The position numbers and the translations under genes are program-made. This document shows, one piece after another, positions 27,490-29,073 of a DNA stretch of 64,000 nt. The stretch spans positions 341 through 64,340 of the forward strand of contig JAFGQS010000018.1 of the NCBI GenBank assembly GCA_016935565.1. Reading direction: 5' to 3'. Position 1 is the stretch's first letter. The number at the start of each line of letters is the position of its first letter. A model generated the notes under the pieces. It worked only from the letters and a program-made list of their open reading frames with translations, did not search any database and was not told where the DNA came from. The DNA comes from Deltaproteobacteria bacterium. Its GTDB lineage: Bacteria; Desulfobacterota; Syntrophia; Syntrophales; UBA6807.

Positions 27490-29073
27490 ATGACTACACA
27501 GAGTACGTTTGTCATGTCTCAGGCAGTGAGAGACGCTTATGCCCGTGGCGAAGAAGATGAAACATTGGAACCTCTCGTTCTGACGGATAAATCAGGACAA
27601 CCGCTCGGAAGGTTTGCGGAAGGAGACTCGGTCATATTTTATAACATCCGTGGTGAAAGAGAAGTTGAACTGACGGAAAGCTTCACCAGGGACTCATTTG
27701 ATAAATTTTCCATTAAGAGCAATCTGGATCTCAATTTTACCACGATGATCGAGTATATGAAAGGTCTGGATGTTGATGTCGCTTTTCCACCCGATGACCG
27801 TGTGAGTGATACATTGAGCGAGATCCTTGCTCAACATGGACGGGTGCAGGTAAAGATAACGGAGGCTGAGAAAGCTATCCATCTCGGATTTTTTTTCAAC
27901 GGGAAAGATTCACGGATTTTGAAAGGAGAGGAGAGGATCTTTGTACCCACGAGAAAGGATGTAGCACTCTTCGATGAAGCACCGGAGATGTCCATCGACG
28001 TAATTACGAAGACGATTATCGAAAAAATTCACGACAGCCGGTATGATGTAATCATAGCAAATTTCCCCAATGTCGATGTGGTGGGGCATATAGAAAACAG
28101 GGACGCGGTTATAAAAGCCGTTGAAACGGTTGATCGAAATACGGGACTGGTCGTCAAGGAGGCGCTTGAACAAGATGTTACCATCCTTGTAACGGCTGAT
28201 CACGGTACTGTGGAAAAGTGGCTTTACCCCGATGGAGCGGTCGATACCGGCCACACCGATTCCCCTGTACCCTTTATTCTTGTTGAAAAGTGTTGTAAGA
28301 TGAATTTGCGAAATAACGGGGAATTATCAGACATCGCACCGACGGTTCTGCAGTTATTGGGGATACCACAACCAAAGACAATGACCGGTGTTTCATTAAT
28401 AGAAGATGATGTGCCGTCAGGCAGTGCGACGGAAAGACGGATACTCTTGCTCATCCTCGATGGATGGGGTGCAAACGAAAATGATGTGGGAAATCTTATT
28501 GCAGCAGCCGGCACCCCGGTCATGGATGATCTTTCAAAGAAATATGCCGTTTCACTGTTGCAAGCCGCCGGCGAAGCTGTCGGTCTTCCCGAGGGAACCG
28601 TGGGTAATTCAGAGGTAGGACATCTCCACATCGGAGCAGGAAGAAGGATCTATTCGGACCGGGTGAGAATAAATATGGCCATCGAGGACGGTTCATTTTT
28701 TGAAAATAGAGCATTTCTAAAGGTAATTCATGCCGCCAGGAATTCTGCAAAGGCCCTGCATTTTCTCGGCATTGTATCTTTTTTCAGTTCCCATGGTTCC
28801 GTCAATCACCTTTTTGCACTGATGGAGCTTGCAAAAAGAGAAGGGGTGAAGGAACTGTATGTCCATGCCATGCTTGGAAGAAGAGGAGAAAGACCCGAGA
28901 GCGGTGCCATATATATCGAGAAGATAGAAAAAGAGTGCGAGGAATTACAGGTCGGAAAGGTCGTGTCGGTTATTGGGAGATACTGGTCAATGGATCGTGA
29001 AGAAAATTGGGATCGAATAGAAAAAACCTATAGAATGCTGGTGTATGGCGAGGGAAATCATATAACGGAGTAA
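27490..29073 (+). CDS. gpmI: 2,3-bisphosphoglycerate-independent phosphoglycerate mutase, circularly permuted domain order
   Basis: Single 527-aa ORF with AGGAG 6 nt before the ATG. The N-part carries motifs of canonical residues ~216-511 ([45 protein letters not shown]). The C-part carries canonical residues ~1-215 ([40 protein letters not shown]..YGEG). Confidence 0.85.
   Translation: [527 protein letters not shown]

Follow-up and report, generated by a model that had tools for sequence, protein, structure and literature searches.

Cofactor-independent phosphoglycerate mutase (iPGM), a textbook example of a hinge enzyme with two domains, is also a target for drugs against parasites and bacteria. 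In the 64,000-nucleotide (nt) stretch of DNA analysed here (the window; Deltaproteobacteria bacterium of the order Syntrophales, assembly GCA_016935565.1, contig JAFGQS010000018.1), a preliminary description made from the sequence alone pointed to a gene at 27490..29073 that encodes the canonical C-terminal part of this enzyme first and the N-terminal part second. The locus raises two questions, namely whether such a rotated order is genuine, and whether the product still interconverts 2- and 3-phosphoglycerate (2PG and 3PG). The first can be answered with near certainty: the gene is a genuine natural circular permutant of the bacterial GpmI/iPGM family. The answer to the second is less firm and depends on how the retained and the altered residues of the active site, as well as the genomic surroundings of the relatives, are weighed.

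Chain order of the permuted protein

The open reading frame (ORF) is complete and uninterrupted, and because no other in-frame start lies between the preceding stop codon and its ATG, it has no hidden 5′ extension. A Shine–Dalgarno-like AGGAG, seen directly in the sequence, lies 6 nt 5′ of the ATG, the flanks are non-coding over ~250 nt upstream (27240-27489) and 121 nt downstream (29074-29194), and the GC content of the gene is typical for its neighbourhood. The 527-aa frame, good ribosome-binding site and non-coding flanks first described are thus all borne out, and every motif quoted from the protein is present in the sequence. The gene and its parts, with the iPGM of Geobacillus stearothermophilus (Protein Data Bank (PDB) entry 1EJJ) as the canonical reference, are as follows:

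27479..27483, + strand: Shine–Dalgarno-like AGGAG
27490..29073, + strand: complete permuted iPGM-family ORF (SSHG clade, subclade A), 527 aa plus stop
27490..27780, + strand: aa 1-97, C-terminal part of the phosphotransferase (iPGM_N) domain, ~1EJJ 208-310
27781..28401, + strand: aa 98-304, C-terminal part of the phosphatase (alkaline-phosphatase-like) domain, from Pfam Metalloenzyme (99-293) and the 1EJJ alignment
28402..28431, + strand: aa 305-314, linker from the ancestral C-terminus to the ancestral N-terminus, unaligned to 1EJJ
28432..28653, + strand: aa 315-388, N-terminal part of the phosphatase domain, from the 1EJJ alignment
28654..29070, + strand: aa 389-527, N-terminal part of the phosphotransferase domain to the new C-terminus, from Pfam iPGM_N (394-524)

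As proposed in the preliminary description, the canonical C-terminal part precedes the N-terminal part in the Pfam, TIGR01307 and 1EJJ alignments alike. The best stretch for Pfam Metalloenzyme (E = 2.7e-57) covers residues 99-293 (profile positions 62-251), and the better of the two stretches for iPGM_N (PF06415; E = 3.9e-56) covers residues 394-524 (profile positions 1-131 of 217), so that the best stretches of the two models come in swapped order. Residues 10-304 correspond to positions 214-504 of the TIGR01307 profile, and the score of 494.5 for this model (cutoff 330.65) is summed over two out-of-order stretches. Likewise, phmmer against the PDB matched 1EJJ (E = 8.8e-119) in two stretches of reversed order, with query 315-523 equivalent to 1EJJ 3-211 and query 11-304 to 1EJJ 218-509. 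The domain boundaries are those that we assume for 1EJJ, cross-checked against the limits of the Pfam stretches. Because the halves align in swapped order and residues 305-314 stay unaligned, the break falls in the transferase domain, and the old termini, both belonging to the phosphatase domain, are fused. This is the arrangement first envisaged, including the ~10-aa linker, whose position was anticipated to within ~2 nt. The linker varies in sequence and length within the family, and the first ~10 residues at the new N-terminus are variable as well.

Instead of the collinear GpmI architecture (N-terminal phosphatase part, transferase, C-terminal phosphatase part), the protein shows the same segments rotated, its old termini connected and its new ones placed in a loop, which is what distinguishes a circular permutant. 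The ancestral chain would have been opened anew at the surface loop that follows the ..YGEG helix of the phosphotransferase domain (1EJJ ~211-217), and the resulting chain would run from the transferase C-part through the phosphatase C-part, the linker and the phosphatase N-part to the transferase N-part. Since the permuted chain still crosses between the two domains twice, the hinge architecture would be preserved.

Structure prediction is consistent with this topology. The AlphaFold2 model computed on the family alignment has a mean predicted local distance difference test (pLDDT) of 91.1 and a predicted template modelling (TM) score of 0.88, with a pLDDT of ~79-82 in the linker. In a Foldseek search of the PDB, the significant matches were iPGM structures only, with 260-304 aligned columns and TM scores of 0.40-0.50; they cover about half the chain, as expected of a sequential aligner facing a permutant. 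For the canonical comparison, the iPGM of Geobacter sulfurreducens (P0367) was predicted by the same method and the permuted protein was rotated at the linker. After rotation, 512 residues could be aligned (41% identity), compared to only 306 in the native order, and the predicted secondary structures agreed at 94% of positions with no helix/strand conflicts. The model therefore shows a confidently predicted two-domain fold, with secondary structure matching that of canonical iPGM once the chain is rotated.

A homologue search covering 5.8 billion proteins, with relatives drawn from JGI, ENA, NCBI and Logan assemblies, yielded at least 119 full-length relatives that share the permuted order (coverage 98-100%, identity 62-90%), including those of Syntrophus aciditrophicus SB, S. 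gentianae, Smithella and Syntrophales metagenome-assembled genomes (MAGs). In the finished genome of S. aciditrophicus SB, the genes around the orthologue (P0064) match those of the window, namely the divergent upstream genes for a 131/132-aa hypothetical protein, pcm and a LysM/M23 protein, with a Macro-domain gene directly downstream. This downstream position of the Macro gene is kept in 8 of 8 Syntrophales-type loci, the synteny being conserved in Syntrophales only.

Spread and origin of the permuted order

The permuted order is not peculiar to the window: it characterizes a clade that extends over several phyla and whose members can already be found in public databases. When 1.84 billion cluster representatives were scanned in full with HMMER, permuted-order collinear matches appeared down to 37% identity, interleaved with canonical two-stretch matches, and at least ~41 permuted loci were found in a scan of species-representative genomes. 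Judged by record titles, the permuted loci belong to five phyla among the matches listed:

Thermodesulfobacteriota: Syntrophales
Chloroflexota: Anaerolineae, Thermoflexia
Bacillota: Oscillibacter, Butyricicoccus pullicaecorum, Christensenella and others
Acidobacteriota: Aminicenantes
Planctomycetota: Phycisphaerales

For neighbour-joining (NJ) trees, the permuted sequences were rotated back and aligned with 124 canonical representatives. All permuted proteins with an 'SSHG' motif form one clade (NJ bootstrap 99/100 and 100%), which splits into two subclades with 96% NJ support each:

Subclade A (that of the window protein): S[FH][FY]SSHG, GRRGE and ADHGT; full-length members at least 52% identical to the window protein; housekeeping-like or uninformative gene contexts
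Subclade B: xKSSHG, DGRST and ADHGN; 36-43% identity to the window protein; catabolic-looking gene clusters

Four rare permuted proteins (P0123, P0124, P0137 and P0226) fall outside the SSHG clade. They share the loop break and the fused termini with the window protein but, unlike it, keep DGRD, xxGVHS and all 8 canonical positions that are changed there. The closest relatives of these orphans are canonical-order iPGMs at 51-57% identity; in the case of P0137, which is seen in two independent assemblies (L003:4041-5585 and L004:2341-3885), the nearest ones come from Geobacteraceae and Clostridia. All permuted forms break in one and the same loop, the NJ bootstrap for all permuted proteins as a single group is 0%, and the best split contradicting a single origin reaches 58%. 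The four orphans may represent independent, more recent permutations at this loop.

A plausible origin of the permutation is tandem duplication and fusion, a route in which a duplicated gene would have been joined in frame and would then have lost both outer ends. The distance from MTGxSL to the catalytic Asp in the permuted proteins has a median of 19 aa (range 15-27, n = 115), while the N- and C-tails of canonical proteins have medians of 11 and 3, respectively, with a median per-protein sum of 14 (interquartile range 13-17, n = 178). The linker is roughly as long as the two old tails together and is therefore compatible with an end-to-end tandem fusion followed by loss of the outer halves. 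Tandem iPGM–iPGM fusions were sought among unusually long matches, and none was found; these matches comprise canonical proteins with extensions and one permuted module in a 5,027-aa prediction. Similarly, no flanking iPGM remnants were seen on the contigs bearing the orphan P0137. The module in the long prediction (P0225) is in permuted order and occupies residues 3863-4376; this protein could be either a true fusion or a gene-calling read-through.

Active site and putative function

Residues of the canonical active site are distributed over all four segments of the rotated chain (1EJJ numbers in brackets). The first segment (aa 1-97) carries R54 and R57 (R261 and R264) within IRGERE, where R54, G55, E56 and R57 are invariant in the family. 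The second (aa 98-304) provides K128 (K336), D196/H200 (D403/H407), D237/H238 (D444/H445) and H255 (H462), and the segment following the linker (aa 315-388) provides D324 (D12), the nucleophile S374 (S62) and H378 (H66), with GNSEVGH at aa 372-378 (nt 28603-28623). In the last segment (aa 389-527), H435 (H123) lies in SFFSSHGS (nt 28777-28800), and R465 (R153) is followed by G466, which replaces D154, in LGRRGE (residues 462-467, nt 28873-28890); R497 (R185) and R503 (R191) are also present. Both metal sites (D324, S374, D237 and H238; D196, H200 and H255) are therefore kept, all seven metal ligands and the Ser nucleophile being invariant in the 119 relatives, as are the equivalents of H66, H123, R153, R185, R191, R261, R264 and K336. 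The residues that we take, from UniProt/HAMAP annotation, to bind the substrate in GpmI are H123, R153-D154, R185, R191, R261-R264 and K336. The window protein keeps H435, R465, R497, R503, R54, R57 and K128 of this set, and departs from it at D154 (G466) and D263 (E56). Judging from these residues, the protein very likely performs a two-metal phosphoryl transfer through a phosphoserine intermediate with hinge closure, as in canonical iPGM.

The retention of the metal-binding and catalytic residues had been noted early on, together with the change of DGRD to GRRG; the latter belongs to a set of 8 changes that affect otherwise near-invariant positions of canonical proteins. Out of 65 columns conserved to at least 93% in the 124 canonical representatives, the window protein keeps 57, and the changes lie beside catalytic motifs. 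They comprise D151G, G152R and D154G (DGRD to GRRG), D263E (RxDR to RGER), a Thr near 340 replaced by Gly, a Ser near 361 by Thr, a Gly near 409 by Glu (VGHxG to VGHIE), and N447T (ADHGN to ADHGT). Furthermore, SDGGVHS has become SFFSSHGS. Both GRRGE and SFFSSHGS are invariant in the 119 relatives, and DGRD is absent from 151 of 151 SSHG-type permuted proteins. In subclade A, E467 (beside the lost Asp) and an extra R464 are invariant, and these two residues may compensate for D154 in a remodelled glycerate pocket. The searched literature offered nothing usable on the roles of D154 and H123.

The genes found around members of the two subclades also bear on function. Those of subclade A are:

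Subclade A, Syntrophales: neighbours pcm, nlpD and Macro
Subclade A, Aminicenantes and related MAGs: neighbours M23 and an ABC-2 transporter
Subclade A, elsewhere: unrelated neighbour genes

Subclade-B genes lie in clusters with 1-5 HAD hydrolases (HAD_2 paralogues), LacI and RpiR-SIS regulators, KduI/IolB, a TAL/FSA aldolase, a PRK/uridine-kinase-family kinase and an ABC sugar transporter, in hosts such as Anaerolineae, Oscillibacter, Butyricicoccus pullicaecorum, Christensenella and others. The Anaerolineae encode an ApgM-type iPGM 14 nt downstream of the subclade-B gene (559 bits against the NCBI iPGM equivalog, cutoff 468). The LacI-regulated cluster is conserved in loci L005-L022, L029 and L044 (e.g. 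L009:1250-12705) and looks like an undescribed carbohydrate or sugar-phosphate pathway. This catabolic context suggests that the SSHG clade may have left glycolysis. At a single subclade-A locus, in Chloroflexi bacterium B3_Chlor (L026:7560-8183), a His_Phos_1 protein of the cofactor-dependent phosphoglycerate mutase (dPGM) superfamily is encoded 3 nt past the stop of the permuted gene; within NCBIfam it comes closest to the MSMEG_4193 putative phosphomutase family, with a score below the cutoff.

Overall, we lean with moderate confidence towards a permuted GpmI-family enzyme that uses the same chemistry and acts as a 2-/3-phosphoglycerate mutase in Syntrophales. The narrower proposal, that it is the 2PG/3PG mutase of gluconeogenesis in these bacteria, appears no more than probable and is made with slightly more reserve. 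A housekeeping role is supported by the synteny of the permuted gene among housekeeping genes in Syntrophales. For S. aciditrophicus SB, Foster et al. 2010 (PMC2964296) listed a single bacterial-type iPGM, presumably the permuted orthologue, beside three archaeal-type iPGMs and no dPGM.

Several observations weigh against a mutase role. The three archaeal-type genes listed for S. aciditrophicus (PMC2964296) could supply phosphoglycerate mutase (PGM) activity, and sister subclade B occupies LacI-regulated carbohydrate clusters with an ApgM-type iPGM directly adjacent; because of these two circumstances, mutase activity is less certain. The score of the permuted protein for NF003897, the GpmI equivalog, is 430.6, with the cutoff at 862. 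DGxD occurs in 235 of 235 canonical-order proteins gathered, and D154, which we take to be a substrate-binding residue following UniProt/HAMAP, is Gly here, with D151, G152 and five more near-invariant positions differing too. No glycolytic neighbours were found at the examined subclade-A loci, and the searched literature contained no biochemical or expression data, nor any evidence that the S. aciditrophicus orthologue is expressed.

The alternative that survives best retains the permutation and assigns the protein another job. The SSHG clade, subclade A included, would be a neofunctionalised paralogue, with ApgM supplying the glycolytic/gluconeogenic PGM, and its members would be metal-dependent phosphomutases or phosphatases with some other small molecule as substrate, either a phosphorylated hydroxy-acid or a sugar phosphate. 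We regard this proposal as a serious possibility, though less likely than the mutase role. The loss of D154, D151 and G152, along with the RGER, ADHGT, VGHIE and SFFSSHGS changes, is fixed in the clade and lies beside catalytic residues, which fits a new substrate; however, subclade A differs from B exactly at the pocket motifs, having GRRGE, with an invariant acidic Glu by the lost Asp, rather than DGRST, and the equivalents of H123, R153, R185, R191, R261, R264 and K336 are all kept. The subclade-B clusters, with their hydrolases, sugar-related genes and ApgM-type protein, point in the same direction as the lost residues, although subclade A shares none of this catabolic context and is conserved in a housekeeping-like manner, single-copy and syntenic across Syntrophales. 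The three ApgM-type genes of S. aciditrophicus could take over the mutase step, but a function other than PGM is assumed for some bacterial ApgM homologues, as exemplified by the proposed homoserine kinase model TIGR02535. The phosphomutase-like His_Phos_1 gene at the B3_Chlor locus also speaks for another job.

In its most far-reaching form, which we put forward only tentatively, this alternative would make the SSHG clade an enzyme family so far overlooked, whose members no longer serve as phosphoglycerate mutases. Subclade B of Clostridia and Anaerolineae, with the adjacent ApgM-type mutase, HAD phosphatases and PRK-family kinase, would then serve an undescribed carbohydrate or sugar-acid phosphate pathway, and subclade A of Syntrophales, Aminicenantes and Chloroflexota would act on a different phospho-substrate, with ApgM carrying the glycolytic PGM activity; we consider either scenario less likely than not. 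If true, the change in topology together with the loss of a universal Asp would be the mark of a new specificity in the alkaline-phosphatase superfamily.

A pseudoenzyme that has kept nothing but its fold, being either catalytically dead or regulatory, is very improbable. The protein has lost one substrate-binding Asp that is universal elsewhere, but none of the seven metal ligands varies across 119 relatives that are only 62-90% identical overall, and neither does the Ser nucleophile; such invariance is a signature of selection on catalysis. Finally, the possibility that the ORF is an artefact of assembly or gene calling, such as a mis-joined tandem duplication of canonical gpmI, is negligible, as nothing in this analysis was found to support it and it is excluded by the identical architecture of at least 119 full-length homologues from independent clusters and by the conserved synteny in the finished S. 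aciditrophicus genome, with further evidence against it from the species-representative genomes (at least ~41) that carry the permuted gene, from a window without a second iPGM fragment, and from the stop codon 5′ of the first start codon.

The permuted gene is the only candidate PGM gene in the window, as first described: no second hit appeared below E = 0.6 in tblastn searches for which ApgM, dPGM and the permuted protein itself served as probes. Other genes of the window are:

19910-21571, − strand: four-domain phosphoglucomutase/phosphomannomutase-family gene, a different family from phosphoglycerate mutase
22866-23543, + strand: gene for a 225-aa protein with N-terminal zinc-ribbon motifs and a weak Coa1-like domain (PF08695, E = 4e-8)
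26844-27239, − strand: 131-aa ORF with no Pfam/NCBIfam match, divergent from the permuted gene
29195..29749, + strand: Macro-domain gene of the O-acetyl-ADP-ribose deacetylase type, the downstream neighbour (Pfam Macro E = 2e-43; NF001664 216 bits, cutoff 200)
29952-31100, + strand: 382-aa radical SAM gene

No terminator-like site was found in the 121-nt gap between the permuted gene and the Macro gene, and the two are probably co-transcribed. The 131-aa ORF is conserved beside pcm in 7 of the 8 Syntrophales-type loci examined. The radical SAM gene is found in S. aciditrophicus at L001:6473-7621 (−), and since it lies on opposite sides and strands in the two genomes, a local rearrangement has taken place within otherwise conserved synteny. 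The combination of zinc-ribbon and Coa1-like parts in the 225-aa protein is unusual for a bacterium.

Relation to known enzymes

The permuted form of iPGM appears to be undescribed, even though its sequences are already public. In agreement with the preliminary description, no account of a permuted iPGM turned up in the searched literature; phmmer found no PDB entry with the permuted order, and NCBIfam holds no model dedicated to it. Database names for clade members are inconsistent ('iPGM', 'alkaline phosphatase family protein', 'sulfatase-like'), and many NCBI records of members carry only the name 'alkaline phosphatase family protein'. For P0005, P0011, P0019, P0064, P0104 and others, the likely cause of this naming is that the permuted order breaks full-length HMM matches. 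With labels of this kind, metabolic reconstructions of syntrophs, Anaerolineae and gut Oscillospiraceae may miscall a glycolytic step. A natural permutation with its break inside the inserted transferase domain, fixed across phyla, makes a clean test case, bearing on the relation between chain connectivity and domain closure and on the evolution of new topologies. Moreover, considering the loss of a universal substrate-binding Asp and the presence of a sister subclade in catabolic clusters, the family may hide a new activity.

The window protein has its metalloenzyme core and metal-ligand motifs in common with phosphopentomutase (DeoB) and further enzymes of the alkaline phosphatase superfamily, and it matches NF009049 (E = 1e-9) as well as the Phosphodiest and Sulfatase Pfam models weakly. 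Those enzymes lack the iPGM_N transferase domain, and the likeness is confined to the core. Archaeal ApgM (PF10143, TIGR00306, NF003160) is likewise a member of this metalloenzyme (alkaline-phosphatase-like) superfamily and carries out the phosphoglycerate mutase reaction in archaea, and ApgM-type genes occur both in S. aciditrophicus and beside subclade-B genes in Anaerolineae. However, the window protein resembles it weakly and over a short stretch (TIGR00306 E = 1e-11, residues 174-268 only). ApgM proteins are ~400 aa long, contain a different inserted domain and are not permuted relatives of the window protein.

The closest known system is canonical GpmI/GpmM, represented by the G. stearothermophilus (1EJJ/1O98), Staphylococcus aureus (4MY4) and G. 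sulfurreducens enzymes, which consists of the same two domains and is ~38-41% identical to the window protein after rotation. The metal sites, the Ser nucleophile, most substrate-binding residues and the predicted order of secondary-structure elements are common to both. In contrast to the canonical enzyme, the window protein has a rotated chain that breaks in the transferase domain and joins the old termini by a linker, differs at D154, D151, G152 and five other near-invariant positions, and scores below the NF003897 cutoff.

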